Source: Candidatus Woesearchaeota archaeon
GTDB lineage: Archaea; Nanobdellota; Nanobdellia; Woesearchaeales; UBA11576
Reading direction: 5' to 3'
Assembly: GCA_018675335.1 (NCBI GenBank)
Contig: JABGYH010000007.1
Coordinates: forward strand, 111,902-175,901
DNA: 64,000 bases
Shown piece by piece: positions 4,025 through 62,974 of the stretch. The notes beneath the pieces were generated by a model. It had not been told where the DNA came from. It searched no databases and saw nothing but the letters and a program-made list of their open reading frames with translations. Made by a program: the position numbers and the translations under genes. Numbering within the stretch: position 1 is the stretch's first letter; each line of letters opens with the position of its first letter.

Positions 4025-5109
4025 ACGAAAAAATATTAATTTGTGGCGCAGGACAAGGAGGGCATGCAATTGCGGGCTATGCTGCAACATTAGGAAATGA
4101 AGTTAGTTTATACACTCACACCCCAAAAAAAGCAGAAATTATTTCTTCTAACGGCAACAAAATTAAATTAACAGGAATACTAGACGGTGAAGCGCAATTA
4201 AGAAGTATAACCACCAACCTCCAAGAAGCAGTTTCAGATAATAAATATATTTTCATAATTACCGATGCAACAGTTCATAAATACTATGCAGAAAGACTAG
4301 CACCAATCTTAACAGATCAACAAGTTATGTTAATTTCTCCAGGAATTGGAGGAGCACTTGAATTTTTAAATTTAGTTAATTCAATAAATCCTGATGCCAA
4401 CATAGGAGTTAGTGAAACAGATACATTAGTTTACGCGTGCAAAGTTCCAGAAATAGGAACTTCATATATTAAAACAGAAAAAAAAAGCATAATTTATTCT
4501 TCAGTTCCTAATGCGGAAGGAATTGCTGGACTTTTAAATGAACTGTATCCTCAATTTGAAGATGTAGGAAATCCTTTAATGGGCTTAGATGATAGTCCAG
4601 TATTTCATATTGTTGGAATGTTATATAATGCACACAGAATTTTAAATAAAGAAGATTTTAATTTTTATATTGGTGGAACGACAGAAGAAAGTGCAGAAAT
4701 AATGGAAGAAATGGATGCTGAAAGATGCGAGGTTGCCCGCGCAGTAGGAATTGAACCTAGAACTGTGCGTGAATGGTTAAACATCGCTTATGGCGTTGAA
4801 ATGAGTTCTTTATTTAACATGATACATGCGACACCCCCATACCAAAACACTCCTGAAATTCCAAATAGATCTCCTGCCCCAAAAACTCTCTTTCACAGAT
4901 ATTTGTTAGAAGAGATTCCTTTAAGAGCAGTTCCAACAGTTAGCATAGCAAGAATATTTGATATTCCAACTCCCCGATATGAAGAAATGGTCGGTAGAGC
5001 AAGAGAATTAACTGGAATTGATTTTTGGAAAACTGGAAGAACTCTTGAAGATATGGGATTAACAGAGCAAGATATAAAAAGATGGACCAATTCACATACT
5101 TGGAGATGA
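4021..5109 (+). CDS. Opine (octopine/nopaline-type) dehydrogenase family NAD(P) oxidoreductase
   Basis: By-eye alignment to Arthrobacter CENDH: GAGQGGHAIAGYAA Rossmann, SPGIGGALEF, MDAERCEVARA, DIPTPRY, DFWKTGRTLEDMGL. Start ATGA overlaps the upstream stop. Confidence 0.75.
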   Translation: MNEKILICGAGQGGHAIAGYAATLGNEVSLYTHTPKKAEIISSNGNKIKLTGILDGEAQLRSITTNLQEAVSDNKYIFIITDATVHKYYAERLAPILTDQQVMLISPGIGGALEFLNLVNSINPDANIGVSETDTLVYACKVPEIGTSYIKTEKKSIIYSSVPNAEGIAGLLNELYPQFEDVGNPLMGLDDSPVFHIVGMLYNAHRILNKEDFNFYIGGTTEESAEIMEEMDAERCEVARAVGIEPRTVREWLNIAYGVEMSSLFNMIHATPPYQNTPEIPNRSPAPKTLFHRYLLEEIPLRAVPTVSIARIFDIPTPRYEEMVGRARELTGIDFWKTGRTLEDMGLTEQDIKRWTNSHTWR

Positions 5110-5981
5110 AGTCTAATAGTCGAATAATCGCACCATCAAAAAAAATTTCTAAACACGAATTAATTAAGGGAATACAAAGATTACATAAAATAGGATTTAT
5201 CCCAAAATATAATTCAGATATTACTAGTTCAGATATTTATTTTGCAGGCACTTTGCAACGTCGTGTATTAGAAATCGAAACTGCACTTTTAGAAGTAAAA
5301 AATCCATTTATTTTTTGCGCTCGCGGAGGATATGCTTCTATGGAACTTCTCTCACACATTAATCCGAAGCTAATAAAAAAATCAAAAAAAACAATCATAG
5401 GCCATAGCGATATTACAGCATTACTCCTCGGTTTTTATAAAAAAGGATTTCAAGGCAATTTAATACACGGACCTAATATTTGCACTAAAAACTGGATTGA
5501 AAATTCAGTATCAGAAAAGTTATTAATTGATTGTTTAACAAATAAACCATACAAAATTAATTTAAAAAATCACACCCACATTTTAAATGAAAAAAGTTTT
5601 AATGGACACATAATAGGGGGAAATTTAAGAATTATTTGCCACATGATTGGCACAGAATATGAAATTGATACTAACAAAAAAATATTATTTTTAGAAGATG
5701 TTAACGAAAGACCTGCCGCAATATATAATATGTTACTTCACCTAAAATTGGCAGGAAAGTTAAAAAATATTAAAGCATTACTTATAGGAAATTTTCAAAA
5801 ATCAAGAAATTATTTAAAATTACTAGAAAAATTTATCAAAACTCTTAAAATACCAATTATTTATGAGCTTAGATTAGGCCACCAAAATAATATAATACCC
5901 ATAAGGCTAGGAGATTATGTTCATTATAATACCTTAACAAAAAATTTATCTTTTAAAAACAATAAACAAACAAAAAAATAA
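5082..5981 (+). CDS. S66-family LD-carboxypeptidase (LdcA/MccF-like)
   Basis: GHSDITALL nucleophile-Ser motif and a C-terminal GH-containing segment. Overlaps the upstream gene by 28 nt. Confidence 0.7.
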   Translation: MDQFTYLEMKSNSRIIAPSKKISKHELIKGIQRLHKIGFIPKYNSDITSSDIYFAGTLQRRVLEIETALLEVKNPFIFCARGGYASMELLSHINPKLIKKSKKTIIGHSDITALLLGFYKKGFQGNLIHGPNICTKNWIENSVSEKLLIDCLTNKPYKINLKNHTHILNEKSFNGHIIGGNLRIICHMIGTEYEIDTNKKILFLEDVNERPAAIYNMLLHLKLAGKLKNIKALLIGNFQKSRNYLKLLEKFIKTLKIPIIYELRLGHQNNIIPIRLGDYVHYNTLTKNLSFKNNKQTKK

Positions 5982-10520: not shown

Positions 10521-11813
10521 TTAATACTTAGCTCTTTTACCAAGTTCCACTTCTATTTGCATGAGCCTATTGTATTTTGCTAAACGTTCTCCCCTACAAG
10601 GCGCTCCAGATTTGATTTGACCCGAACCCAAACCCACAACTAAATCCGAAATAAATGTACTAGTAGTCTCACCACTACGATGACTAACCATCACATTCCA
10701 ATCATTTTTCAACGCCAACTTTGCAGCAGCTAATGCTTCTGTTACGGTCCCAATTTGATTCACCTTTAACAAAAGTGCATTGCATAAATTCCTGTCAAGT
10801 GCAAGTTTAACACGATCAACACTCGTAACTAACAAATCATCACCAACAATTTGAACTTTTTTTCTCTTAAGAACTTTATTTTGTCGCAACATAGAAAAGC
10901 CAGAAAAATCATCTTGATCAAAAGGATCTTCAATAGATACAATAGGATATTTTTTAACTAACTCTTCATAAAAATCAACAAATTTGTTTTTCGAAAATCG
11001 TTTTCCATCAACTTTGTAATAACCTTTATGAAAAAACTCAGACGCTGCCGCATCCATTGCAATCTTAATTTTTTTAGAATAACCTAAATCATCAATTGCA
11101 GTCACCAGTAAATTTAATGCTTGTTCAACACAATCAATTCTTGGAGCAAACCCTCCTTCATCACCAACATTAGTGGAATCCTTGCCATACTTATGACCAA
11201 TAACTCTTTTTAATTCGTGATATGTTTCGGCACCAATACGAACACTATCCGCAAAATTCTTCCCTTTAGGCGCAATCATAAATTCTTGAAACGCCAATTT
11301 ATTTTCTGCGTGCTTCCCACCATTTAAAACATTGAAAAATGGAGTTGGCAAGCGATTTTTAGTACCAATAATCGAATATAACTTTTTATTTTTGACAATG
11401 GAACAAAGACGATATGATGCCAAACTAACTCCTAAAATTGCATTCGCACCAAGTCGAGATTTGTTTTTAGTTCCATCCAAATCCACTAATGCGCGATCTA
11501 TTTTTTTAGGTTCACGAACATCAAAACCTTTTAATTTACGATTTATAATTGTATTAACATTATTAACTGCTTTTAAAACTCCTTTACCACCGTACCGTTT
11601 GCCACCATCTCTTAGTTCCCACGCTTCATGAATCCCTGTTGATGCACCACTTGGTACTTCTTCTGTTGCAGAGTGAGTTTTTGTAAATACTGTAACTTCA
11701 ACTGTAGGATTACCTCTAGAATCAAGAATTTCTCTAGCAAAAATCTTTCTTATGAAAAAATCGTCTTTTGCAGCCCTAACAGAAATAAATTTTGTAGCCA
11801 AGTTACACCTCAA
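10521..11813 (-). CDS. eno: Enolase (phosphopyruvate hydratase)
   Basis: [15 protein letters not shown] and SHRSGETEDTFIADL-like [15 protein letters not shown] motifs. The track ORF starts at TTG. The real start may lie about 20 codons in from the track start. Confidence 0.92.
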
Positions 11814-12040
11814 TTTTTGAAAATAATATTTTTACAAACCCATTTATGACCTAATCGCCAACAAATTAGATCTGATTATTAAAAATATAATATAATAGAT
11901 GAAAATAGTTATTTATAAACTTTATGTAGCACTAGCGAGTAAACTATCTGGTTAATATTAAAAATAACGAATTGATAGTACCCCAAATTGATTAAATTAA
12001 ATCAGTAATTGATTCAATACTTAATTATTGAATCAGTGCA

Positions 12041-12931
12041 TTAACCAATATAACTAGTTTCTTTAGTTAGTCTTTGAGTAATTTTTTTCAAACTACTTTT
12101 AGATACTTTACTTGCATCACCTGGTTCTTGTGATAATTCTTTTTCTAATTCGGCAATTTCCTTATCAAGCTTTTTGATACTAATGCCTAAATTAAGTTTT
12201 TTATCTAAGATCTTAATTATTTCTCTTGCTCCACCCACACCTAAATAAGCAGGATGACCAAGAGTTTCTGCAAGTAAACAAATACCAGGAACATCTTGTC
12301 TTTCTGCAAGACCAATTAACAATCCACTCACACCAATAATTGGGCCCACAACACCAAATATATTATGATTAATTTTAATGCCTTTTTGAAACGAAGTCAT
12401 AAAATCAGAATTATTAGCAGTACAATAAACTTGAGGTTTCTTAGGTGCTTGACCCAAACCAATACCTCCCAAAGTAATTATTTCAGATCCCCCAACTTTT
12501 TTAAACAAACTTAGAACTGAATCGCAAAAAGCATAACAACTCCTGCCATCAGTTGGTTGAAGATCTCCAGTTATGATTATTAAATCTCGTTTATCGCAAG
12601 ACTTAATTTTTTTTACTTTTTTTTCCGATTTAGAATTTTTAGTTAGTTTAGCTTTATCTTTTCCATTACCATTAAATTTTTTGTAATAAACTTCAATAAG
12701 TGGAAGTTCAACACGATTATGCTCATTAATAAAAACAGAATTTGGCAAATCATACGAAAAAATCTCAAAAACTTTTTTAGCCTTAATTTGTTCAATAATA
12801 AAATCTACAGCAATTTTACCAACATTACCAATTCCAGGCATTCCTTCCACTAAAACAGGATTGTTAAGTTTAGGTATTTTGTTTGTTTGCGGGATAAATT
12901 TCCAATCAGTCAATTTAAGGTACCTCACCAA
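12041..12931 (-). CDS. PAC2-family proteasome assembly chaperone
   Basis: PVLVEGMPGIGNVGKIAVDFII and IIITGDLQ PAC2 signature segments. Confidence 0.7.
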   Translation of the reverse strand: MVRYLKLTDWKFIPQTNKIPKLNNPVLVEGMPGIGNVGKIAVDFIIEQIKAKKVFEIFSYDLPNSVFINEHNRVELPLIEVYYKKFNGNGKDKAKLTKNSKSEKKVKKIKSCDKRDLIIITGDLQPTDGRSCYAFCDSVLSLFKKVGGSEIITLGGIGLGQAPKKPQVYCTANNSDFMTSFQKGIKINHNIFGVVGPIIGVSGLLIGLAERQDVPGICLLAETLGHPAYLGVGGAREIIKILDKKLNLGISIKKLDKEIAELEKELSQEPGDASKVSKSSLKKITQRLTKETSYIG

Positions 12932-13075
12932 ATATTATTTTAAATCATTATTTTAACGCATTATCTTAACACATTATCTTAAATCAGCAATTCAAAACAT
13001 CATTTCAAATCAACAGTTCAAAACATCAGTTCAAAGTATAATTACAAATAAATCATATTAGCAATTATTCATTAA

Positions 13076-13255
13076 TTATAGACGACCATCATTTTCAAGA
13101 AGTTCTTTTCTCGCCTTACGACGATAACTACCATAAGGATCTTCAGGACTAAATTTAGCAGGAGCAGGATTAACTGTTTTCGCATTACAAGAAGGGCAAT
13201 CAGCCTCCATAGAATAAACATCACAACTTTTGCACTTAAGTATATGTCTCGCCAT
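13076..13255 (-). CDS. nop10: H/ACA ribonucleoprotein subunit Nop10 (59 aa). Not in the ORF track.
   Basis: Manual translation gives MARHILKCKSCDVYSMEADCPSCNAKTVNPAPAKFSPEDPYGSYRRKARKELL: zinc ribbon plus the P-x-FSP-D-Y Nop10 motif. It sits in the conserved Nop10-aIF2alpha-S27e-L44e neighbourhood. Confidence 0.7.
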   Translation of the reverse strand: MARHILKCKSCDVYSMEADCPSCNAKTVNPAPAKFSPEDPYGSYRRKARKELLENDGRL

Positions 13256-13413
13256 TTTTAGAATGTAAGTATCTTCTTCCTTATATTTTTTACTTTTGAA
13301 ATTTGAAAAAAAAGGTTTTATTTCGAAAAAAATAAATTTTCATCGAATAATTAATGAATTAATATGTGAATAAATATTATCAACTGACTGAATTTTATTA
13401 AATTAATAAGATG

Positions 13414-14202
13414 TTAAGACTTTTGCTCAATTCGCTTGAATTCAGCATAACCATCAACTTTTTCAATTCCCTCAATCACATATTCTGTAACCGCTTTTAA
13501 TTTTTTCTCAACACTTTTGTAATCAGTATCTGAAACTTCTAAAATATATGCGCCACCGCCCTTATATTTAATCATTGAATCTTTTGCTTTTTTCAAAGAT
13601 TCAGTAAGAACTTTTTTAATTGTTTCAATACCATCTGGAGTGAAAAGTTTAATTTTGAATTCTCCTGATGCAAATTTAATAGAAGGTTTAATTCTTTGTT
13701 TAATTGTAACGCCAAGTAACTTCATAATATTTTCAGGAAGTTTATAATCATCCAGTGCAGAGTCATCAGAAATATAATCTTCAAAACACGGATAAATATT
13801 ATCATAATCATTTAAAATCTTATCACAAAGAGTTTTGTAAATATCTTTAACATTTAGCTTTAACTCTCCTGCAACAAACTCAATAATTTTTTCAGCCTTT
13901 TGTTCTTGCTTAATCTCGTCGACTTTCGCACGTCTTTGAGTTTCAGTAACTCTCCTTAAACTTAAATCAACATGACCTCGTTCTTTATCAGTTTTAAGAA
14001 CTTTACAAATAACTTTTTTACCCTCTTTAACATAATCGTGAATATTTCTAATTCTACCAGGAGATACTTCCCCAATGTGAATCATACCACTTTTACCACC
14101 AAAATCATCAATGGTTACAAAAACACAATGCGGATAAATTTTAGTAACATTACAAAGAAGAATTTCCCCATCCTCTGGCAAGCCAGTTTTTTGTCTTAAC
14201 AT
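13414..14202 (-). CDS. eif2a: Translation initiation factor 2 alpha subunit
   Basis: N-terminal S1 domain (GEILLCNVTKI...SLRRV), helical domain and C-terminal alpha/beta domain. 262 aa. Confidence 0.85.
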   Translation of the reverse strand: MLRQKTGLPEDGEILLCNVTKIYPHCVFVTIDDFGGKSGMIHIGEVSPGRIRNIHDYVKEGKKVICKVLKTDKERGHVDLSLRRVTETQRRAKVDEIKQEQKAEKIIEFVAGELKLNVKDIYKTLCDKILNDYDNIYPCFEDYISDDSALDDYKLPENIMKLLGVTIKQRIKPSIKFASGEFKIKLFTPDGIETIKKVLTESLKKAKDSMIKYKGGGAYILEVSDTDYKSVEKKLKAVTEYVIEGIEKVDGYAEFKRIEQKS

Positions 14203-14306
14203 TTTTATTAAACACTCAAATCAGCAATATATACAATTAACACAACAATTAAAAAAAAATGTGTAAAAAAACTATAAAAATTATTAAACGTATTAAAAGA
14301 GCAGAA

Positions 14307-14489
14307 TTACTCAAGAACCTCAAGGATTCTTGCCTTAACTTTGGACTTTCCACCAGTACTTTCAGCCAAAGGCTTATCACAAACTAAACATTTAACGGTA
14401 GATGCAGTTTTTCCAAACATAATCTGTTCATTCTTACATTTAGGACATCGAACTTTTATAAATCTTGATGATGGATCTTTAACTCTCAT
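14307..14489 (-). CDS. rps27e: 30S ribosomal protein S27e
   Basis: C4 zinc finger: VRCPKCKNEQIMFGKTASTVKCLVCDKPL. Confidence 0.85.
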   Translation of the reverse strand: MRVKDPSSRFIKVRCPKCKNEQIMFGKTASTVKCLVCDKPLAESTGGKSKVKARILEVLE

Positions 14490-17400: not shown

Positions 17401-17964
17401 TTATGGACAGTTTACAACACGTACAAATGTACCATCTGGTGTGTTAATTGCAACTCTATTTTCTCCAGAAATAACACCCATGTCAAGACCAACACAAATT
17501 GTTGATTCTCCAGGTGTTAAAACTTCAGAACTACATTCAGGAGTTACATCAGATAAACCACGATTCATAATACCTACATTTGGTTTTGCATCAGCAGTTT
17601 TTGTTAAAACCCAATCTTTCTCACCAGTATTAACTAATTCGAAACTGATTTTATCTGCATCACAAACAACATCAGAAAATTCTGCGCTTTCAACAGTAAC
17701 ATCCATTGCTAGACCTTTATCTTCTTTTTCTGCCATTACTTCGTCAGAAATTTCTTCACCTTCTCCTTCTGGAAGAGTTGGTTTTTGTTCTACAACTTCA
17801 ACAGGTTCTGCTACCACAACTGGTTCTGGCACTACAACAGGTTCAGGAGCCACAGGTTCAGGTGCTACAGGAGCTTCCTCAACAGGTGTTTCTTTTGAAC
17901 CACAACCAAAAACAAAAAGTAGAGCTACTGCCAAAATTGCAATTGCTAATAATACTTTTTTCAT
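17401..17964 (-). CDS. Secreted lipoprotein with a Pro/Glu/Val-rich linker and a 4-Cys C-terminal domain
   Basis: Signal peptide ending in the lipobox-like LFVFGC. PEPV repeats (APVAPEPVAPEPVVVPEPVVVAEPVEV). Locally elevated GC. Confidence 0.6.
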   Translation of the reverse strand: MKKVLLAIAILAVALLFVFGCGSKETPVEEAPVAPEPVAPEPVVVPEPVVVAEPVEVVEQKPTLPEGEGEEISDEVMAEKEDKGLAMDVTVESAEFSDVVCDADKISFELVNTGEKDWVLTKTADAKPNVGIMNRGLSDVTPECSSEVLTPGESTICVGLDMGVISGENRVAINTPDGTFVRVVNCP

Positions 17965-24385: not shown

Positions 24386-26332
24386 ATGGCATTTGAAAAA
24401 AAATCTCCAACAGAGGAAGAATTTTTAGTACAAATAAAAGCCAATAATCCAAATGCAAACTTCGAATTAATTCAAAAAGCATACCGCTTTGCAGAAAATG
24501 CGCACAAAGGACAAAAAAGAGAATCAGGCGAAGATTTTTTTATTCATCCCTTGCAAACTGCAACAATTCTAGTACAATTAAAAGCTGACACTGCAACTAT
24601 TTGTGCAGCACTATTACATGATACAGTAGAAGACACCCCTAATTCAATCGACGTAGTTCGAAAAGAATTTGGAGAGGAAATTGCCGTACTTGTTGAAGGA
24701 GTTACCAAAACACAAGGCATTTGGTTTGATTCAAAAGAAGAATACAAAGCAGAAAATCTTCGTAAAATACTTCTTGCAACAACAAAAGACTTCAGAGTTA
24801 TAGTTGTCAGACTTGCAGACAGACTCCACAATATGCGAACTCTTTCTTATTTTAGAGAAGATAAACAAAAAAGAATAGCAAAAGAAACAATGGAAATTTA
24901 TGCACCCATCGCACACAAATTAGGAATTTGGAGAATTAAAGGAGAGTTAGAAGATTTATCATTAAGATATTTAGATTACAAAACATACAGCATTCTACGA
25001 GAAAAAATAGCTGAGAAAAGAGGAGAACGAGAAAAAGCAACAACTGATCTTACTCAACAAATAAAAGATGCACTAAAAAAAGAAGGAATCGATGCAGATG
25101 TAAAAGGACGTGCAAAATATTTCTACTCAATATATAAAAAGATGACAAAAAAGAATCGTCGCTTTGATGAAATATATGATTTAATAGCATTCAGAATAGT
25201 TACTTCTCGCGTCGAGGAATGCTATAAAGCAGTTGAAATAATAAATAAATTATTCACACCTCACCCAGAAAGATTTAAAGATTATGTAGCACACCCGAAA
25301 GCCAACGAATACCAATCAATACACATGACTGTAGGGTATAAGAAAAAATTACTCGAAGTTCAAATAAGAACTAATGATATGGACCACATCGCAGAAGAAG
25401 GAATTGCTGCACACTGGAGATACAAAGGAACAGAACGAGACAAGAAATTTGATAGAAAAATTGCCTGGTTAAAACAAATTCTTGATTGGAAACGAAAATC
25501 AAAAAACGCAATAGAATTCGTCGAGTCACTAAAAATAGATTTATTTGAAAATGAAATAATAGTTTTTACTCCACAAGGAGATCCGATTTCATTACCTGAA
25601 TGTGCAACCCCTGTTGATTTCGCATATGCAGTCCATAGTAATTTAGGAAATCAATGCAGTAAAACAAAAGTCAATAATAAAATCGAATCACTAGATTACG
25701 AACTTCACAGCGGAGATGTTGTCGAAGTAATCACTCAAAAAAATGCTAAACCCTCTAGGTCGTGGCTTAATTTTGTAAAAACAACTAAAGCAAAAAGTAA
25801 AATTAGAATTTTCTTAGAAATCAAACCCGATAAAAAACTTGGAGATAAAAAACGAAAAGCAATAGCTCGCGGCGAACTTGAAGAAAAAATACCCGTACTT
25901 GAAAATATACTAATCCACGGAAAAGATTCTGGCAAAAATAATTTAATAAAATTGTCAGGATGTTGTGAAATAAAACATGGAGAAAAAATAGTTGGATTTT
26001 ATACAAAAGAAAAAAAAATAAGCATCCACAAACAGGGATGTATCAATATTCACTCACTTGATTCAAATCGCGAAGTAAAATTAAGTTGGATAGTTCCAAA
26101 AGATTATAATATTAAAAAACTCAAAGTATTTGTTGATGATAGGCCAGGAGTTTTAGCAGATATTTTAAACTATTTGGGAACCAAACAAATCAAAGTTAAA
26201 TCTGTTAATACAAGAGCTAAGAAAAAGAAAATACTACTAACATTCAAAATAGAACTTTCTGATGAGAATAAATTAAATAAAACGATTCAAGAAATAAGTG
26301 AAATCCGAGATGTTATTGAAACTAGAATTTAA
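24386..26332 (+). CDS. Long RelA/SpoT-homologue (p)ppGpp synthetase/hydrolase: HD + synthetase + TGS + ACT domains
   Basis: HD: HPLQTATILVQL...LHDTVEDT. Synthetase: DLIAFRIVT...YQSIHMTV. TGS: IVFTPQGDPISLPECATPVDFAYAVHS. C-terminal ACT-like region. Confidence 0.85.
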   Translation: MAFEKKSPTEEEFLVQIKANNPNANFELIQKAYRFAENAHKGQKRESGEDFFIHPLQTATILVQLKADTATICAALLHDTVEDTPNSIDVVRKEFGEEIAVLVEGVTKTQGIWFDSKEEYKAENLRKILLATTKDFRVIVVRLADRLHNMRTLSYFREDKQKRIAKETMEIYAPIAHKLGIWRIKGELEDLSLRYLDYKTYSILREKIAEKRGEREKATTDLTQQIKDALKKEGIDADVKGRAKYFYSIYKKMTKKNRRFDEIYDLIAFRIVTSRVEECYKAVEIINKLFTPHPERFKDYVAHPKANEYQSIHMTVGYKKKLLEVQIRTNDMDHIAEEGIAAHWRYKGTERDKKFDRKIAWLKQILDWKRKSKNAIEFVESLKIDLFENEIIVFTPQGDPISLPECATPVDFAYAVHSNLGNQCSKTKVNNKIESLDYELHSGDVVEVITQKNAKPSRSWLNFVKTTKAKSKIRIFLEIKPDKKLGDKKRKAIARGELEEKIPVLENILIHGKDSGKNNLIKLSGCCEIKHGEKIVGFYTKEKKISIHKQGCINIHSLDSNREVKLSWIVPKDYNIKKLKVFVDDRPGVLADILNYLGTKQIKVKSVNTRAKKKKILLTFKIELSDENKLNKTIQEISEIRDVIETRI

Positions 26333-47644: not shown

Positions 47645-48454
47645 ATGTTTATAATTGATTTTAATCCAATCATTGTTTCAATTGGCACCATGCAAATTAG
47701 ATGGTATGGAATAATTTACATTCTAGGATTTGTATTCGCATATTTTTGGCTTAATTATGTTGGCAAAAAATGGGTAAAACAATTTGATAAAGAGAATGTA
47801 GAAGAATTTATTTTATATTTAATGATTGGAATTATTGCAGGTTCAAGATTATTTGAAATGATTTTTTATCGGTTTGAAAGTTTTATTGCAAACCCCCTTG
47901 AATTGTTTAAAATCTGGGAAGGTGGAATGAGCTTTCATGGCGGACTTATCGGAACATTTTTGGCAGTTAAAATTTGGAGTGTTCGTCGACGAATTGAGTT
48001 TTGGAAAATACTTGACTTAATAAGTCCAGTCGCAATATTTTCATTAATGCTTGGACGAATAGGCAATTTATTGAATGGAGAATTAATCGGAACTCCATTT
48101 AATGGACCGTGGTGTGCAATTTTTTCTGGAGTGGATAATGTTTGTAGACACCCATACCCAATTTATGCATTTATCTCGCATTTGTTATTATTTAGTTGGC
48201 TAATATTTTTAATTTATTTGAATAGGTCAACGCTTAAAAAGTTTTTTGGTTCTAAACTATTATCAATTAATTTTTTAATAGGCTATGGAATATTAAGAAT
48301 CATTACAGACATTTGGAAAATTGACAATATAGTTTTAGGTTTGAAAACAGGACAATTGCTAAGTGTTATTATGATTATTATAGGACTTGGAATTTTTGCT
48401 TGGACAAAGAAAAAATGGATTTTAAATAAGATAACCTCGGAGCACAAAAAATGA
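47645..48454 (+). CDS. lgt: Prolipoprotein diacylglyceryl transferase (bacterial-type Lgt)
   Basis: By-eye alignment with E. coli Lgt: FNPIIVSIGTMQIRWYGIIYILGF, WEGGMSFHGGLIG, GRIGNLLNGELIG, LIGYGILRII. Confidence 0.85.
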   Translation: MFIIDFNPIIVSIGTMQIRWYGIIYILGFVFAYFWLNYVGKKWVKQFDKENVEEFILYLMIGIIAGSRLFEMIFYRFESFIANPLELFKIWEGGMSFHGGLIGTFLAVKIWSVRRRIEFWKILDLISPVAIFSLMLGRIGNLLNGELIGTPFNGPWCAIFSGVDNVCRHPYPIYAFISHLLLFSWLIFLIYLNRSTLKKFFGSKLLSINFLIGYGILRIITDIWKIDNIVLGLKTGQLLSVIMIIIGLGIFAWTKKKWILNKITSEHKK

Positions 48455-56105: not shown

Positions 56106-56426
56106 ATGCACGAACAAGCAATTGCCCAACAAATAATAGAAAAAGCAAAAGAATTAGGCCAAGTTAAACAAATTTTTGTTGAAGTTGGGGATTTAGGCCA
56201 CTTGCCCGCCAATGAAATGAAAGAAGTTCTAGAAAATCGAGTTGATTGGAAAATAATTATTGAAGAAAAAAAAGCAACAGTTAAATGCGAATGTGGATAT
56301 TTAGGCGAACCAAATATTATTGAAAAACGACATGCCTCAACACTATATGAGTGTCCTAACTGCGGAAATTTACCCCAAATTATTGACGGAGACAAAATCA
56401 TACTCACAAAAGTTGAAATTGAATAA
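56106..56426 (+). CDS. hypA: [NiFe]-hydrogenase nickel-insertion protein HypA
   Basis: MHE N-terminus and CECG...CPNCG zinc site. Confidence 0.75.
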   Translation: MHEQAIAQQIIEKAKELGQVKQIFVEVGDLGHLPANEMKEVLENRVDWKIIIEEKKATVKCECGYLGEPNIIEKRHASTLYECPNCGNLPQIIDGDKIILTKVEIE

Positions 56427-56493
56427 ATTTTTAAAGAATTATTATAAAATTATAAGAAAAATTTAAATACGCACAAAAGAGACATATCATAAA

Positions 56494-57267
56494 ATGACAG
56501 ACAATGTCAAAAAAATAACAAAACCACGTAAACCGAAAGTAGGTTTTTTTTCATTCACTTGCTGTCAAGGCTGCCAATTTACAGTTTTATTCATCGATGA
56601 AATTCTAAATATATTAAATAAATTTGATGTTAAATATTTCCACCTAATAAAAGAAAAAAATAGAGAGGGAAAGTTTGACATAGTATTTGTCGAAGGTGCT
56701 ATAACCACAAAAAAGGAATTAAAAAAACTAAAACAAATTAGAGAAAAATCAAAAATTGTTGTTGCTATGGGTGCTTGTGCATGCCATGGAGGGATACCTG
56801 CAATGCGAAACTTTCTTGAAAATTCTGAATTAAATAAATATGTATATAACCAAAATATGTTAAAAGATTCCATTGAAGCAAAAGGCGTTGGAGAACACAT
56901 AACAGTAGATTACTATCTTAGAGGATGTCCAATAATTAAAGAAGAATTTGTTGAATTTGTAAAAAAATATTTGAAAAAAGAAAAAATAGAAGAATTCATA
57001 GGTCCAGTATGTGTTCAATGTTCAAAACGAGGAAAGGATTGTTTCTTAACTCAAAAGAAAATGTGTTTAGGTGCTATAACTCATGGAGGTTGTGGTGCCA
57101 TATGTACAAAAGAAAATATTCCTTGTGTTCTTTGTCGAGGACCAGTTGATCACGCAAATTTTACAGGAGAAATAAAATTATTTGAAAGTTGGGGAGTTAG
57201 TTATGAAGAAATCAAAAATAAACTAACTGAATTTGATAATATCAAATTGGATGATCCCAAAAAATAA
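56494..57267 (+). CDS. [NiFe]-hydrogenase small subunit (group 3-like)
   Basis: FSFTCCQGCQ proximal-cluster motif plus additional Cys clusters (CACHGG, CVQCSKRGKDC...CGAIC...CVLC). Confidence 0.75.
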   Translation: MTDNVKKITKPRKPKVGFFSFTCCQGCQFTVLFIDEILNILNKFDVKYFHLIKEKNREGKFDIVFVEGAITTKKELKKLKQIREKSKIVVAMGACACHGGIPAMRNFLENSELNKYVYNQNMLKDSIEAKGVGEHITVDYYLRGCPIIKEEFVEFVKKYLKKEKIEEFIGPVCVQCSKRGKDCFLTQKKMCLGAITHGGCGAICTKENIPCVLCRGPVDHANFTGEIKLFESWGVSYEEIKNKLTEFDNIKLDDPKK

Positions 57268-57282
57268 TTGTGAGAATAAAAA

Positions 57283-58581
57283 ATGAGCAAAACAATAAAT
57301 CTTAATCACATAACTAAAATTGAAGGGCATGCGAAGCTACACATAGTAGTAGATGGAAATAAAATAAAAAAAGCAGAATTGAAAATCTTTGAAGGAAGCA
57401 GATATTTTGAAGGAATACTGAAAGGTAAAAAATTTGATGAAGTTCCAATAATTGCTTCACGAATTTGTGGAGTGTGTTCTGTAGTTCATACGATTGCAGC
57501 AAACAAAGCTATTGAAGATGCATTCGAAATAACGGTCAGCAAACAAACAAAATTACTTCGAGAACTTCTAAACATAGGAGGAATTATTCAGAGTCATGTT
57601 TTACACCTATATTTTTTAGTCTTACCAGACTATTATGGGTATAGCAGTGCAATTGAGATGGCGCCAACCCATAAAGAATTAATTAAAACTGCACTAAGAA
57701 TTAAAAAAGCAGGAAATAAAATAGTTAGAGTGGTTGCAGGACGAGATATACATCCAATTGCAGAAGTTATTGGCGGTCTTTCTCGAACTCCTGATGAAAC
57801 TGCATTGAAAAGTTTACTATCTGAATTAAAAAGCATAAAAAAAGATGCAAAATTTACTCTAAATGTTTTTGACGAATTAGATTATCCCTCAATTATTTTA
57901 GACCACCCTTATTTTGGGTTTGGAGGGGGAAGTTATTTTTATTCAGACAAAGTCATAAATGGTCTTGACGGTGAAGAATACACTGAAAAAGAATATGAAA
58001 AACATTTTAAAGAATTCTTAAGAAAAGGATCAACTGCAGAATTTGCCACAAAAGAAGGCAAAACCTACATGGTCGGAGCATTACCTCGAATATTACTTCG
58101 AATCGAAAAAAATGATTTAAAAACTCAAAAAAAATATTTAAAAAAAATCTTAAACAATAAATGGAATCCATATATGAATGTTCTTGCGCAAGCAATAGAA
58201 ATCAATGAAGGAATAATCAACTCAATTGAAATTTTAGAACAAGTTTTATTAAATTTTAAAAAAGAATCTCCTGCAACTTTTGTTGTTAAAAAATCTGAGG
58301 GAATTGGACGAGTAGAAGCTCCACGAGGGATGCTATTTCACCAATACAAATTTGACTCCAAAGGAAACTGTACTTTTGCAAATATCACCACCCCCACAAC
58401 GCAAAACTTAGCACATGTTGAGGATGCAATTAAGATACTTGTTGAAACATTATTACTTGATGAAAAAAAGAGTAAGAAAGACATTAAACTTGATATTGAA
58501 AAATTAATACGCGCATATGATCCTTGCATAAGTTGTTCAACGCACTTTTTAGAACTTAATTGGGAAGAATTCAAGAAATGA
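57283..58581 (+). CDS. [NiFe]-hydrogenase large subunit
   Basis: N-terminal RICGVCSVVH (RxCGxCxxxH) and C-terminal DPCISCSTHF (DPCxxCxxH) Ni-Fe ligand motifs, plus a C-terminal extension for proteolytic maturation. Confidence 0.88.
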   Translation: MSKTINLNHITKIEGHAKLHIVVDGNKIKKAELKIFEGSRYFEGILKGKKFDEVPIIASRICGVCSVVHTIAANKAIEDAFEITVSKQTKLLRELLNIGGIIQSHVLHLYFLVLPDYYGYSSAIEMAPTHKELIKTALRIKKAGNKIVRVVAGRDIHPIAEVIGGLSRTPDETALKSLLSELKSIKKDAKFTLNVFDELDYPSIILDHPYFGFGGGSYFYSDKVINGLDGEEYTEKEYEKHFKEFLRKGSTAEFATKEGKTYMVGALPRILLRIEKNDLKTQKKYLKKILNNKWNPYMNVLAQAIEINEGIINSIEILEQVLLNFKKESPATFVVKKSEGIGRVEAPRGMLFHQYKFDSKGNCTFANITTPTTQNLAHVEDAIKILVETLLLDEKKSKKDIKLDIEKLIRAYDPCISCSTHFLELNWEEFKK

Positions 58582-58589
58582 ATATCCAC

Positions 58590-58916
58590 CTATAATTCAT
58601 CATACTTCTTACTTAACCCATGGCATTTACTAATAGGATATTTTTTTTCATTTTCTGCCATCTTTTTTTCAAACCAGTAAATAATATCTAAATTTAAAAC
58701 ATCTGACAGTCTTAACAAAATATTTAACACATCTGCCAGTTCTAACGCAACGCTATCAGGATTTGCGTTTTCTTTAAATCTAAATAAATCAAGAACTTCG
58801 CTTGACTCTAGAACAAGAGCTATTGCTAATTCTTTAGGTGAATGATACTGTTCCCAATCCCTATCCACACTAAATTTTTTTACTTTTTCTTTTAATAAAT
58901 TTATTTCATTGACCAT
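58590..58916 (-). CDS. MazG-like nucleotide pyrophosphohydrolase
   Basis: DRDWEQYHSPKELAIALVLESSEV EExxE-type motif. Confidence 0.55.
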   Translation of the reverse strand: MVNEINLLKEKVKKFSVDRDWEQYHSPKELAIALVLESSEVLDLFRFKENANPDSVALELADVLNILLRLSDVLNLDIIYWFEKKMAENEKKYPISKCHGLSKKYDEL

Positions 58917-59007
58917 ATTAGTTGAGAGAAATTGATTTAATTTAATGATTATCCCCTCACCAGTAAGGGAAAATATTTAAATAATAAACAATTATTAATT
59001 ATTTAAT

Positions 59008-59748
59008 ATGAAAATACCCCTATTAACTGAAGGAGAATCCAAGGTCTATACCTCACTAAATGAATTAGGTGAAAGCACCACAGGCTTAATTTTGAAGAAT
59101 TCAGGAGTTTCACACTCCAAAATATATGATATTCTCAAAAGACTATCTAAAAAAGGATTAGTTAGCACAGTAAATAAAAATGGAGTTCAACATTTCAGCC
59201 CCGCACCACCTGAAAGATTAAATGAACTTGTAAACGAAACTGAACTCTCACTCGCGAATACAAAACAAGAAGTTAAAGAAATTATTAATAAACTAAAAAT
59301 AGTTGAAAAAACAGGAATTAAAACAAGTGCACTAAATTCATATGAAGGAATAAAAGGCATGAAGACAGTTCTCGAAAAAGTTTTGTCACATTTAGCCCCA
59401 GAAGAGACAGTATTAATATTGGGATCTCCAAAAAAAGTAGGAGAACAAACAGGAGGCTATTTGAAGAACTGGCAACAAAAAAGAATAAATAAAAAAGCTA
59501 AATGTAAAATCATAGTCAACAAAGACTCTATTTCATGGGATGACAAATGGTGGAAAGAAAGTAAACGCAAAAAATTAACAATCACCAAAAAATCAAATAA
59601 TTTGGCCCCAGCATACCTAGTCATAACTAATTCAGTTGTCGCCACAATATATTTTTCAGAAAAACCACTATCCTTCTTAATCGAACACAAAGAAATTGCT
59701 AAAAGTTATAAAGAGTTTTTTAATCAAGCTTGGAGAGAATCGAAGTAA
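59008..59748 (+). CDS. TrmB-family transcriptional regulator
   Basis: N-terminal wHTH LTEGESKVYTSLNELGESTTGLILKNSGVSHSKIYDILKRLSKKGLV. Confidence 0.65.
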   Translation: MKIPLLTEGESKVYTSLNELGESTTGLILKNSGVSHSKIYDILKRLSKKGLVSTVNKNGVQHFSPAPPERLNELVNETELSLANTKQEVKEIINKLKIVEKTGIKTSALNSYEGIKGMKTVLEKVLSHLAPEETVLILGSPKKVGEQTGGYLKNWQQKRINKKAKCKIIVNKDSISWDDKWWKESKRKKLTITKKSNNLAPAYLVITNSVVATIYFSEKPLSFLIEHKEIAKSYKEFFNQAWRESK

Positions 59749-60121
59749 GTTCTTTTTGAATTTGATCTCGGTTTCCTTCAGGAGGAATGCCAATAATTTG
59801 AATTTTTTTAAGTTCACCCATTTCTTTTTTTAATTTTAACCAAAAGCTAAGATCTAAATCATGACATCCAATGCAGCTAAATTGAGAAAGATGATCAATA
59901 TCAGTTATTAGTATTGATTTTGAAATATTCATGATAACGTCGAGAATTATTAAATTATTTGACTCTGGAAGATCATCAGGAGAAGAACAATTGATAAATT
60001 TTATATTAGGAAAAACGAGGTTAGATACTAATTTTTTAGCCAACGAATCAGTTTTGATGAATTCATTACCAAAACAGTAAATACATAATTCAGATTTTAT
60101 TTTGGGCATACCAACATACAT
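59720..60121 (-). CDS. Hydrogenase maturation endopeptidase (HycI/HybD family)
   Basis: ...ILDVIM...CHDLDLSFWL...IIGIPPE... pattern of the Ni-dependent C-terminal protease. Confidence 0.5.
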   Translation of the reverse strand: MYVGMPKIKSELCIYCFGNEFIKTDSLAKKLVSNLVFPNIKFINCSSPDDLPESNNLIILDVIMNISKSILITDIDHLSQFSCIGCHDLDLSFWLKLKKEMGELKKIQIIGIPPEGNRDQIQKELTSILSKLD

Positions 60122-60155
60122 TAATCAAAAAGTATTTATATGGTTTTGGATTTAA

Positions 60156-61079
60156 GTGAGCAATATGGAAAAAAGAGGACTAATATTTGTATTTCTAACC
60201 GCAGTAATAAGTGGACTGGCAATATTCCTAAATAAAATAGGAGTCGGCGGAATAAATCCTAGCGTTTTTACTTTTTCAAAAAATATTCTTGTTTTTGCAT
60301 TATTATTAGTCACCATAATTGGACTTAAAGAATTCAAACAAATTAAATCATTAAAAAAAAAAGAATGGGGTTTTTTGAGCGTTATTGGACTATTAGGTGG
60401 AAGCATACCATTTTTACTCTTCTTTAAAGGATTGAGTATCACCACAGGAATTAAAGGTGCGTTCATCCACAAAACAATGTTTGTTTATGTTGCGATACTA
60501 TCAATAATATTTTTTAAAGAAAAATTAAATAAACAAACCATATTTGTTGGTGCAACCCTCCTAATAGGAAATATTCTTCTTTTAAGATTAAGTTGGCAAA
60601 CCTTAAATTTAGGAGATTTACTTATTTTTCTTGCCACAGTATGTTGGGCAGGGGAAACTATTTTGTCAAAAAAAATATTAAAAACTGTTCAACCAAAGAT
60701 TGTAGCATTAGGCAGAATGGGATTTGGAAGCATGTTTATTTTAGGATATTTATTTGCAGCAGGAGAGATTAGAGAAGTATTAATGATGAATTATGAACAA
60801 ATATTATGGATCATTATCACTTCAATATTTTTGCTAGGTTATGTTTGGACGTGGTATACTGGACTGCAAAAAGTCAGCGCAACTGTTGCAACTTGCATTT
60901 TAATGTTCGGCTCAATAATAACCAGCTTACTTAACCTAATATTTTTAGACAATATTTTAAACATCAATCAAATTATTGGAGTTATGTTTATTGGAGTCGG
61001 AATAATATCAGTTATTTTTTTAGAAAAACAAATTATCACAAATAAAAATTCAAACCTAAAATTTAATTCTATTAATTAA
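60156..61079 (+). CDS. EamA/DMT-family transporter (10 TM)
   Basis: Duplicated EamA-like 5-TM halves. Confidence 0.65.
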   Translation: MSNMEKRGLIFVFLTAVISGLAIFLNKIGVGGINPSVFTFSKNILVFALLLVTIIGLKEFKQIKSLKKKEWGFLSVIGLLGGSIPFLLFFKGLSITTGIKGAFIHKTMFVYVAILSIIFFKEKLNKQTIFVGATLLIGNILLLRLSWQTLNLGDLLIFLATVCWAGETILSKKILKTVQPKIVALGRMGFGSMFILGYLFAAGEIREVLMMNYEQILWIIITSIFLLGYVWTWYTGLQKVSATVATCILMFGSIITSLLNLIFLDNILNINQIIGVMFIGVGIISVIFLEKQIITNKNSNLKFNSIN

Positions 61080-61582
61080 TCCCAGTTGGAATTTGCAATC
61101 TCAATAAGATAACCTAAATGAGTAAAAACTATATCACCAACTTTAACATTTGGAATTAACTTCACAATCATATGTTTTGGTCGATTAATATTGTCGTTAG
61201 GTTCTAAATACTCAACTTTGGCAGTTGTTTCATTACGCATAATAATTTTTACCCTATGAACTTTACAAAATTCTCTGAATGAGGGAGGAGTTTTAGAATA
61301 AAAACCTTCTTTTCCATCAATAAATTTATTATGAAATTCTTTAAAATAAACTTCAATAATTGATCTGTCCCAAATAGGTTTGTTTAACTGAATTGCCACT
61401 TGTTTAATTCTCCTAAAAGCAGAAGGAAAAAGAAGTTCAAGTTCAGATTTATCAAGAGGAGTTTTATTTAACAATGCAGTTTCTAATGCAAGGCGCTTTT
61501 CTTCAGTTATTTTCCCTTGTTGAACTAAAACAAATGCACAAGGAAATGCATATTTCAAAAAATAATGTTCTACTGATTCCAT
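61076..61582 (-). CDS. Hypothetical protein (168 aa) upstream of hypC
   Basis: Clean ORF. No motif recognised. Confidence 0.4.
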   Translation of the reverse strand: MESVEHYFLKYAFPCAFVLVQQGKITEEKRLALETALLNKTPLDKSELELLFPSAFRRIKQVAIQLNKPIWDRSIIEVYFKEFHNKFIDGKEGFYSKTPPSFREFCKVHRVKIIMRNETTAKVEYLEPNDNINRPKHMIVKLIPNVKVGDIVFTHLGYLIEIANSNWD

Positions 61583-61613
61583 TGTTACTTATTCCATTTT
61601 ATGACTGAATTAT

Positions 61614-61847
61614 TTACTCATCATCACAATAATTTACTGATTGTTCTTCCATTTGTTTTAATGTTTTCAGAAAATCAAGCGCTTCACGCTCACTTACAAT
61701 AGACACAATAAACCCGCCTGAGACTAAAACGTATTCGCCCAATTTAGGAATTTCAAGAAGTTTAACTTCGCGTTTAGTGTGACCATAGTCAACAATTGCA
61801 GTATCAGACTTAATTTCTACAATTTTTCCAGGTATTGACAAACACAT
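61614..61847 (-). CDS. hypC: Hydrogenase assembly chaperone HypC/HupF
   Basis: MCLSIP N-terminus (Cys2 essential) and GEYVLVSGGF. Confidence 0.75.
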   Translation of the reverse strand: MCLSIPGKIVEIKSDTAIVDYGHTKREVKLLEIPKLGEYVLVSGGFIVSIVSEREALDFLKTLKQMEEQSVNYCDDE

Positions 61848-61921: not shown

Positions 61922-62974
61922 TTAAAATAAACCTTCTGCAGTACAGGCAAGTGAATTTTGTGCCGCATAGTTATTTGATGGTGCATAAGGAGTCGTACCC
62001 CGCCGCGAAACTTCTTTCGCACGTTTTAATTTCGCTAACGCTGAATAAGTCTCAATATTTGAATTAATCTGATCTGTTCTATGAACATCTCCACTTTGCA
62101 CCGTAATTAACCCTAATGATCTAGCCAGATTATAATAATGCACATTTTGTTCAGGAGCATGATGTCTACTACCTGATTCGACACCCACAATACCAATCTG
62201 ATCTATTAATTTTTTAACAAGATAATCTTCAGCACCCAATTTTAGATTTCTTCCAGGATGTGCTAAAACCAAAACTCCTTTTGAAAGTGGAAGAATTTTG
62301 GTAGCATCAGGTCGTTTTAATTCAGGATAAACTTTTGAACCAGGAGTTAGATACGTTTTTTTGAACGCACTCTCAGAGGTTATTCCTTCTTTTTCTAATC
62401 GTGCTCGGTTTTTAGGTTTTTGATAAACTTCATGCGCAATATTATTTTTTACAATTAATTTACCATACTTTGAAAAATCGTCCATCGATATATCAAATCC
62501 ATTTTGAGATAGTAATGAAATTGTTTCTTGCGTTCTTGTTGAACGATCATACCTAAACTTAGCTAAAGCCCCCTTAAATTCTTGACTTGACTGATCAGGC
62601 CAATAAGATAATACATGAAGTTTCTTACCCTCAAATTGACAAGTGATTTCAACTGCAGGAATTACTTCAATACCAGTTATTTGTTCTAATTGCCCATAAG
62701 TAGAAATGCCCTCCATTGTATCATGATCTGATATTGCAACAAAATCATATGGTGCTGCCAATAAAAGATCTAAGGTTATCTCCCCATCAGAAAATGGAGT
62801 ATGAAGATGTAATTGTCCTTGTTTTTGTCCTCGATCTTGTCCTTGATCTTGTCCTCGACCTCGTCCCAGGTCTTGTCCTTGGTTTTGTCCTTGGTTTTGT
62901 CCTTGGTTTTGTCCTTGGTTTTGTCTTTGTTTATGGGTTGTTGATGTCATGATAGTAATTAAACATATACGCAA
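61922..62974 (-). CDS. PHP-domain phosphoesterase (TrpH/YciV-like) with an N-terminal [QNQG]/[QDRG] tandem-repeat extension
   Basis: LHLHTPFSDGE...AISDHDT PHP metal-binding motifs. No Met between the repeat and the PHP domain, so the repeat is translated. Confidence 0.65.
   Translation of the reverse strand: MRICLITIMTSTTHKQRQNQGQNQGQNQGQNQGQDLGRGRGQDQGQDRGQKQGQLHLHTPFSDGEITLDLLLAAPYDFVAISDHDTMEGISTYGQLEQITGIEVIPAVEITCQFEGKKLHVLSYWPDQSSQEFKGALAKFRYDRSTRTQETISLLSQNGFDISMDDFSKYGKLIVKNNIAHEVYQKPKNRARLEKEGITSESAFKKTYLTPGSKVYPELKRPDATKILPLSKGVLVLAHPGRNLKLGAEDYLVKKLIDQIGIVGVESGSRHHAPEQNVHYYNLARSLGLITVQSGDVHRTDQINSNIETYSALAKLKRAKEVSRRGTTPYAPSNNYAAQNSLACTAEGLF
62823..62928. repeat. About 9 units of a 12-nt tandem repeat (perfect core GGTTTTGTCCTT x4) inside the 5' end of the PHP gene, encoding QNQG/QDRG repeats
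   Basis: Direct reading of 62821-62940. Confidence 0.8.

Follow-up and report, generated by a model that had tools for sequence, protein, structure and literature searches.

A two-subunit [NiFe]-hydrogenase lineage of group 3b affinity in DPANN archaea, with a probable link to ferredoxin or pyruvate:ferredoxin oxidoreductase

With what does a cytosolic [NiFe]-hydrogenase exchange electrons when only its two catalytic subunits are encoded? This question is raised by a locus at positions 56106-61847 of the window, the 64,000-nt stretch of DNA from a Candidatus Woesearchaeota archaeon analysed here, in which genes for a small (delta) and a large (alpha) hydrogenase subunit are surrounded by maturation genes (positions refer to the whole window, and strands are given as + or -). 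Group 3b hydrogenases are heterotetramers that include the diaphorase subunits beta (Fe-S) and gamma (flavin adenine dinucleotide (FAD), nicotinamide adenine dinucleotide (phosphate) (NAD(P)) and [2Fe-2S]), normally co-encoded in the order beta-gamma-delta-alpha. An earlier reading of this DNA, which we call the original prediction, held that the locus specifies a two-subunit cytosolic DPANN hydrogenase that lacks a diaphorase and depends on a partner, perhaps ferredoxin, whose gene is not linked to it. The group 3b affinity and the monophyletic gene layout described below support the core of that proposal. On balance, we consider it probable that the enzyme is a natural heterodimeric delta-alpha cytosolic [NiFe]-hydrogenase that arose from a four-subunit 3b enzyme by loss of beta-gamma, is linked to ferredoxin or to pyruvate:ferredoxin oxidoreductase (POR), and evolves H2.

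The class of the enzyme was assessed from both subunits. Among NCBIfam models, the large subunit scored best against ShyA (302 bits) and HydA (279 bits), the two Pyrococcus furiosus sulfhydrogenase alpha models, followed by FrhA (173 bits) and VhuA (150 bits), although all of these scores fall far short of the equivalog cut-offs (700 bits for ShyA). Against the Protein Data Bank (PDB), it gave ~260 bits with the alpha subunit of P. furiosus sulfhydrogenase I (SHI) and with Thermococcus kodakarensis HyhL, compared with 179 bits for Mvh, 129 bits for HoxH of the NAD-reducing enzyme and 124 bits for Frh. The small subunit found the sulfhydrogenase HydD as its best NCBIfam match (168 bits) and P. 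furiosus SHI delta as its best PDB match (152 bits, against 88 bits for MvhG). Since both subunits score best against SHI-type models and structures, the nearest known class is, judged from these comparisons, group 3b, with P. furiosus SHI as the closest match. F420-reducing (3a) and Mvh (3c) types were rejected on their lower scores and the lack of an FrhB or MvhD gene, and a group 4 or other membrane-bound type was rejected because Nuo-like membrane subunits were missing.

The residues needed for catalysis and electron relay are all in place. The large subunit carries the N-terminal motif RICGVCSVVH (residues 60-69, with R60, C62, C65 and H69) and the C-terminal motif DPCISCSTH (residues 413-421, with D413, P414, C415, C418 and H421), and these named residues, together with E14 and R348, are invariant in a 28-sequence alignment of relatives that are 47-59% identical. 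The four Ni-ligand cysteines and the catalytic glutamate and arginine are thus unchanged in all 28 relatives, so that the alignment shows no loss of a Ni ligand, which the original prediction had named as counter-evidence. The large subunit continues for 11 residues past His421, and Phe422 and Leu423 of this C-terminal extension are nearly invariant. In the small subunit, 12 cysteines (C24, 27, 95, 145, 173, 176, 183, 191, 200, 204, 211 and 214) are invariant in two- and four-subunit relatives alike; they align to those of P. furiosus HydD and suffice for three [4Fe-4S] clusters (proximal, medial and distal). The hydrogenase is apparently functional.

The beta-gamma module, in contrast, was not found. 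In canonical 3b operons, the gene order is beta-gamma-delta-alpha-protease, as in L029 (L codes denote fetched related loci, whose genes were called by our own open reading frame (ORF) and hidden Markov model assignments). Profiles for beta, gamma, HypD, HypE, HypF-C, POR and ferredoxin were built from the fetched loci and searched against a six-frame translation of the window with its 7-kb and 4.6-kb flanks (positions 375,518-451,028, ~75 kb, of ENA contig k141_91901, which is 556,578 bp long). None of these profiles gave a match in this span, and no ORF of the window contained a CxxCxxCxxxC motif. The claim that no beta, gamma or membrane subunits lie next to the catalytic pair was therefore confirmed, while the original prediction's concern that partner genes might lie elsewhere on the contig can be set aside for the ~75 kb inspected, where there are none. 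Among the best 120 DPANN gamma homologues in a database of 5.8 billion proteins, and among the clade HypD matches listed, none was assignable to the window's contig, which is a weak test given the 90% clustering and the fact that the gamma of L085 was also missed.

The two-gene layout recurs among relatives. All sampled relatives with a large-subunit identity of 50% or more have delta-alpha only (L002, L004, L084, L086, L087 and L088), and a scan with clade-specific small-subunit motifs identified ~20 further metagenomic loci with this layout. By comparison, the next-nearest relatives (L005-L009, L057 and L085; 39-47% identity), which belong to Woesearchaeota, Altiarchaeota and unclassified archaea, all have beta-gamma-delta-alpha. 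Several four-gene DPANN relatives share the divergent protease, EamA, hypC and hypA neighbours of the window locus. In a neighbour-joining tree of 76 large subunits with 100 bootstraps, 23 two-gene loci formed one clade (92/100) placed among four-gene DPANN loci, while L085 as the sister of this clade was weakly supported (42/100). The comparison with DPANN 3b hydrogenases that the original prediction had called for thus nests the window's clade among those enzymes. Because 23 related loci form one clade, the two-gene layout is no local accident. A GTDB scan with the large subunit returned at least 600 matches, and those listed were mostly bacterial 3b loci, which served as the control set.

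Two loci look like intermediates in the origin of the two-subunit form. L006 (7431-13319) has beta-gamma-delta-alpha followed by a second delta-alpha pair, and on a 35-kb contig, L094 (9971-20735), maturation genes fill the 5 kb that separate a two-subunit pair from a canonical beta-gamma-delta-alpha operon. Duplication or loss within the DPANN 3b enzymes would be the simplest history.

L094 also bears on a rival view, in which the window enzyme is a normal 3b tetramer coupled to NADP(H), with beta and gamma subunits encoded elsewhere in the genome: only 5 kb separate the two-subunit pair of L094 from beta-gamma genes. Insertions have already split up beta, gamma and delta in L085, and the window's genome has been seen only over ~75 kb. 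Moreover, Woesearchaeotal hydrogenases have been assigned to 3b by HydDB and described as NADPH-coupled (PMC8421398), and asrAB-like genes occur in some Woesearchaeota metagenome-assembled genomes (MAGs) (PMC9723730). However, beta-gamma adjoins delta-alpha in 0 of the ~18 clade loci for which 3 kb or more of upstream DNA could be inspected, whereas it is present in the four-gene DPANN relatives. The small subunit has also diverged, as expected after a change of partner: those of the clade are 56-63% identical to the window's, while four-subunit ones are 34-42% identical. Finally, the best 120 DPANN-type gamma homologues share no large contig with a clade alpha, whereas four contigs with an alpha that is at most 50% identical do recur in the same comparison, a test again weakened by the 90% clustering and by the restriction to 120 homologues. 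We regard the dispersed tetramer as possible though unlikely.

Other 3b-like loci lacking beta-gamma were also observed. A second, independent 3b-like delta-alpha clade without upstream beta-gamma (98/100 neighbour-joining bootstraps) comes from groundwater metagenomes and has full-length small subunits (L119-L122, L124, L131, L133, L144, L146, L159 and L167); of seven loci checked, six carry an AIR-synthase-like gene 3-8 kb upstream and one, L121, does not. Separately, in L068 (3004-4746), L074 (4180-5661) and L082 (3802-5286), 3b-like large subunits without beta-gamma are preceded by long ORFs that include a small-subunit-like domain; these ORFs may represent the HydA-HyhS hybrid [FeFe]/[NiFe] type (PMC11216029).

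We next considered how the window enzyme would be matured. The maturation set near the hydrogenase consists of HypA, HypC, a 133-aa protease candidate and a 168-aa protein. HypA exceeds the Pfam cut-off (PF01155, 28.9 bits) and falls below the NCBIfam equivalog cut-offs; its N-terminal MHE nickel motif and CxC...CPxC zinc site are conserved in 13 homologues. HypC passes both PF01455 and TIGR00074 (cut-off 48 bits), and it begins with MCLSIPG, the MCLxIPG motif with its essential Cys2 being conserved.

The 133-aa protein is more divergent. Its own match to Pfam HycI (PF01750) is below threshold (E = 0.011; cut-off 23 bits), and no hydrogenase protease was found in the PDB with either the single sequence or a 12-sequence profile. 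Nevertheless, 10 of its 12 orthologues match Pfam HycI (best E = 1.3e-5), and hhalign relates the family to the proteases of canonical 3b operons (96.2% probability, E = 2e-9), pairing D25, D61 and H87, which are invariant in the family along with a GN motif, with the canonical Asp, Asp and His. The orthologues also adjoin the large-subunit gene in most DPANN loci examined. Based on these adjacent orthologues, the HycI matches and the hhalign homology, we accept the 133-aa protein as a predicted divergent maturation endopeptidase, in agreement with the HycI-like endopeptidase of the original prediction, and this assignment fits the conserved C-terminal extension of the large subunit. Single-sequence AlphaFold2 models of the protease and the 168-aa protein had predicted local distance difference test scores (43.9 and 62.4, respectively) too low for use.

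The 168-aa protein has an invariant Cys15 in its N-terminal region and a HypC-like C-terminal domain, and it is related to DUF6390 (PF19927). Five of six members of its family match HupF_HypC and two of six match DUF6390 (best E = 1.6e-36), and in many DPANN loci a gene of this type comes immediately after hypC. It is thus a putative accessory maturation factor, and both DUF6390-related proteins and the EamA transporter may have a so far unrecognised part in maturation or metal supply. DUF6390-related proteins of 150-180 aa were observed beside hypC in L004, L084, L085, L088, L094, L097, L105, L107 and L108, irrespective of whether beta-gamma is present.

In the clade member L087, hypF (C-terminal part), hypE, hypD, hypC and hypA all lie beside the hydrogenase, and several clade contigs recur among the HypD matches; the clade as a whole therefore uses the standard maturation pathway. 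HypB, HypD, HypE and HypF of the window organism are presumably encoded elsewhere in its genome. That HypD, HypE and HypF were not seen near the window locus might, together with a reduced genome and missing partner subunits, suggest that the catalytic pair is a decaying, functionless remnant of a four-subunit operon. This explanation is next to negligible given that the ORFs are intact, that the catalytic and cluster ligands are all invariant across relatives that share just 47-60% identity, and that maturation genes are kept beside the hydrogenase in many genomes, including the hyp set of L087.

A different maturation-related arrangement was seen beside 3b hydrogenases of several bacterial phyla and some Woesearchaeota, in which a HypC domain is fused to a radical-SAM/BATS protein of ~430 aa (L086 at 11715-14377; L091 and L099; L027, L029, L041, L045, L049, L062, L063 and L083). 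The fusion gene of L086 and that of L099 are each followed by another radical-SAM gene.

The gene for a TrmB-type regulator starts ~430 bp downstream of the large subunit. TrmB sugar-sensing regulators combine an N-terminal helix-turn-helix with a C-terminal sugar-binding domain and are ~340 aa long. The window protein is 246 aa long and matches NCBIfam TrmB and TrmBL1 over residues 6-96 only, with no match to the TrmB sugar-binding domain. It may be a regulator of the hydrogenase cluster, and the hydrogenases of L087, L108 and L109 likewise have a TrmB homologue in their vicinity.

This neighbour raises the alternative, also mentioned in the original prediction, that the hydrogenase senses H2 and signals to the adjacent TrmB-type regulator. 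A two-subunit enzyme with no electron-transfer partner, a transcription-factor gene close by and the recurrence of TrmB homologues in three related loci would fit such a role. However, known H2 sensors (group 2b) have no C-terminal extension and no maturation protease and work with a partner histidine kinase, whereas the window's large subunit has the conserved 11-residue extension and a predicted dedicated protease is encoded nearby. In addition, all three Fe-S clusters are kept, the closest relatives belong to 3b rather than group 2, no histidine kinase is encoded within 10 kb on either side of the hydrogenase, and TrmB is missing from most clade loci. A sensory function is very improbable, and this part of the original prediction is not supported.

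The gene context of other clade members provides clues to the electron partner. In L084 and L107, a POR gamma-delta-alpha-beta operon and a gene for ADP-forming acetyl-CoA synthetase are divergently adjacent to the hydrogenase, and in L100 and L104, POR gamma lies at the contig edge just upstream of it; these four loci make up one subclade. A 65-aa ferredoxin gene lies upstream of the hydrogenase in L088 and L101, and the upstream region of L086 encodes glycogen synthesis and breakdown. The unlinked partner proposed in the original prediction is thus backed by clade relatives that adjoin POR operons or small ferredoxin genes.

A biochemical precedent comes from the alpha-delta dimer engineered from P. 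furiosus SHI (Hopkins et al. 2011, PMC3200332), which had 145 U/mg activity with methyl viologen compared to 163 U/mg for the native enzyme and zero NADPH-linked activity. Unlike native SHI, this dimer could be fed by pyruvate through POR at a rate of 0.2 U/mg, whether ferredoxin was added or not (PMC3200332). Because the clade gene context and this dimer point the same way, we favor the ferredoxin- or POR-linked heterodimer, whose electron partner, catalytic direction and regulation by TrmB are all inferred. According to this model, a four-subunit group 3b ancestor would have lost its beta-gamma diaphorase module, leaving a delta-alpha heterodimer in which NADPH coupling should be impossible because the FAD/NAD(P) subunit is missing. 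Since the relay to the distal cluster is kept without a diaphorase, an external low-potential partner would be expected, and the exposed distal [4Fe-4S] cluster could take electrons from reduced ferredoxin or directly from POR. An enzyme fed in this way would act as a fermentative H2-evolving valve, which the TrmB-type regulator may control.

The same heterodimer could instead work as an uptake enzyme that oxidizes H2, for example from a host or partner, and reduces ferredoxin or another low-potential carrier. Group 3 hydrogenases are bidirectional in vitro, the sequence leaves the direction open, and Woesearchaeota inhabit H2-rich anoxic consortia (PMC8421398). However, the neighbours in clade loci are fermentative (POR, ADP-forming acetyl-CoA synthetase and glycogen breakdown), and the reduction of ferredoxin by H2 should be unfavourable at low H2 pressure. 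We therefore consider H2 uptake quite improbable.

Several observations weigh against the ferredoxin- or POR-linked, H2-evolving heterodimer. The adjacency to POR is limited to a subclade from which the window locus is absent, and no adjacent partner gene is conserved clade-wide in the region upstream of delta that was compared. The POR-linked rate of the engineered dimer is low relative to its methyl viologen activity (0.2 versus 145 U/mg; PMC3200332), and catalytic direction cannot be deduced from sequence. L094 shows that both forms can coexist, so beta-gamma might be shared, and the trees are neighbour-joining only. Lastly, beta-gamma, POR, ferredoxin and HypB/D/E/F could lie anywhere in the genome outside the ~75 kb inspected.

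A more specific form of the heterodimer model is that the bare distal cluster docks directly on POR, so that POR and alpha-delta, as a pair of enzymes, would turn pyruvate into H2 without the help of a soluble carrier. This reading is rather unlikely; if true, the dimer engineered from P. furiosus would have its counterpart in nature, as the minimal [NiFe] solution of archaea with reduced genomes. More boldly still, window-type organisms would lack HypD, HypE and HypF altogether, with the host supplying the Fe(CN)2CO cofactor.

The small-subunit C-termini of the two-subunit clade (57220-57267 in the window; also in L084, L087 and L002) are variable Lys-rich tails, none of which occur in four-subunit relatives. 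Speculatively, such tails might aid the docking of acidic partners such as ferredoxin.

Relative to characterized enzymes, the window hydrogenase shares the L1/L5 active-site motifs, the three delta [4Fe-4S] sites, the C-terminal extension and, as predicted, a HycI-type protease with P. furiosus sulfhydrogenases I and II and Thermococcus Hyh, and archaeal 3b relatives share accessory genes with its locus. It differs from these alpha-beta-gamma-delta enzymes in that no HyhB (beta) or HyhG (gamma, FAD/NAD(P)) is encoded within ~75 kb. The engineered SHI dimer has the same composition, namely delta and alpha with three [4Fe-4S] clusters and the NiFe site, but it is a less stable laboratory truncation (PMC3200332), whereas the predicted window enzyme comes from a lineage that is natural and conserved and whose small subunit has diverged.

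Two reduced hydrogenase types from other ultrasmall organisms are also comparable. The 'hyd2' enzymes of bacteria of the Candidate Phyla Radiation (CPR) have 3b-related large and small subunits, the small one being truncated to a mean of 164 aa (Jaffe et al. 2020, PMC7304191). Like the window enzyme, they have no consistent association with beta-gamma, have hypC nearby and occur in ultrasmall, genome-reduced hosts. In contrast with hyd2, which forms a long-branch CPR clade, the window's small subunit is full length (257 aa, 12 Cys), its host is an archaeon and it nests within the DPANN 3b enzymes. The minimal and ultraminimal [FeFe]-hydrogenases of DPANN, whose genes are often found beside those for 2-oxoacid:ferredoxin oxidoreductase in MAGs of Nanoarchaeota (Greening et al. 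2024, PMC11216029), resemble our proposal in their ferredoxin-linked fermentative H2 evolution, which is likewise proposed, although they belong to an unrelated superfamily with a different maturation system.

The genes themselves are already public under generic annotations: an identical large-subunit protein, recorded on contigs of up to 564 kb, bears the name 'Ni/Fe hydrogenase subunit alpha [Candidatus Woesearchaeota archaeon]'. Earlier work (PMC8421398, PMC9723730) has also reported '3b' hydrogenases from Woesearchaeota. In the open-access literature, we found no description of a monophyletic two-subunit lineage or of its adjacency to POR. Surveys routinely label Woesearchaeotal enzymes 'group 3b, NADPH-coupled, possibly sulfhydrogenase'; if the whole clade lacks the NADPH/sulfur-reductase module, such reconstructions give these enzymes the wrong electron partner and the wrong role. 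If the heterodimer model is true, a natural alpha-delta [NiFe]-hydrogenase would be the smallest known working group 3 architecture, would parallel the DPANN minimal [FeFe]-hydrogenases and could serve as a template for the 'minimal hydrogenase' that was engineered from SHI at a cost in stability. The POR adjacency in turn yields a testable hypothesis for how these fermenters couple pyruvate oxidation to H2 release.

The features of the locus are listed in Table 1. The genes for HypA, the small subunit and the large subunit are co-directional, with gaps of 67 and 15 bp. G+C content is ~30% across the window, with no compositional break at the hydrogenase locus. The genes of the original prediction, including the 133-aa ORF, were all recovered where it had placed them; those for HypA, the small and large subunits, the TrmB-type regulator and HypC have Pfam scores above threshold, as does the EamA gene. 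The MazG-like, EamA and 168-aa genes are additions to that prediction.

Table 1. Genes of the hydrogenase locus, with window positions, strand and supporting matches
Feature	Positions	Strand	Product length and match
hypA, nickel metallochaperone, first gene of the hypA-small-large unit	56106..56426	+	106 aa; Pfam HypA 35.4 bits
[NiFe]-hydrogenase small (delta) subunit	56494..57267	+	257 aa; Oxidored_q6 E = 1.4e-26
[NiFe]-hydrogenase large (alpha) subunit	57283..58581	+	432 aa; NiFeSe_Hases E = 7e-36
MazG-like gene, convergent	58590..58916	-	PF12643, 39 bits
TrmB-type helix-turn-helix regulator	59008..59748	+	246 aa; PF01978, 50.1 bits
Divergent HycI/HybD-type maturation endopeptidase (candidate)	59720..60121	-	133 aa; Pfam HycI 16.1 bits
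EamA-family transporter	60156..61079	+	PF00892, 129 bits
DUF6390-related protein with HypC-like C-terminal domain	61076..61582	-	168 aa; HupF_HypC E = 0.0017
hypC, Fe(CN)2CO-transfer chaperone	61614..61847	-	PF01455 63.9 bits; TIGR00074 61.1 bits

EamA homologues were found in L004, L009, L057, L084, L085, L088, L094, L100 and L107, making this transporter a conserved neighbour of DPANN 3b clusters. The MazG-like gene had no homologue in any related hydrogenase locus and probably lies outside the hydrogenase system.

Elsewhere in the window, several genes of bacterial type were observed. A full-length long RelA/SpoT homologue (24386-26332, +) with HD_4, RelA_SpoT, TGS and ACT domains is encoded in this Woesearchaeote; since archaea, to our knowledge, usually lack long enzymes of this family, it looks like a bacterial acquisition. 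Bacterial-type genes were also found for the prolipoprotein diacylglyceryl transferase Lgt (47645-48454, +; 207 bits), an LD-carboxypeptidase (5082-5981, +) and an octopine-dehydrogenase-like protein (4021-5109, +). Two further products contain repetitive sequence, namely a PHP-domain phosphoesterase (61922-62974, -) that starts with a (QNQG)n/GQD low-complexity run and a putative lipoprotein (17401-17964, -) with VAPEPV/PEPVVV repeats.

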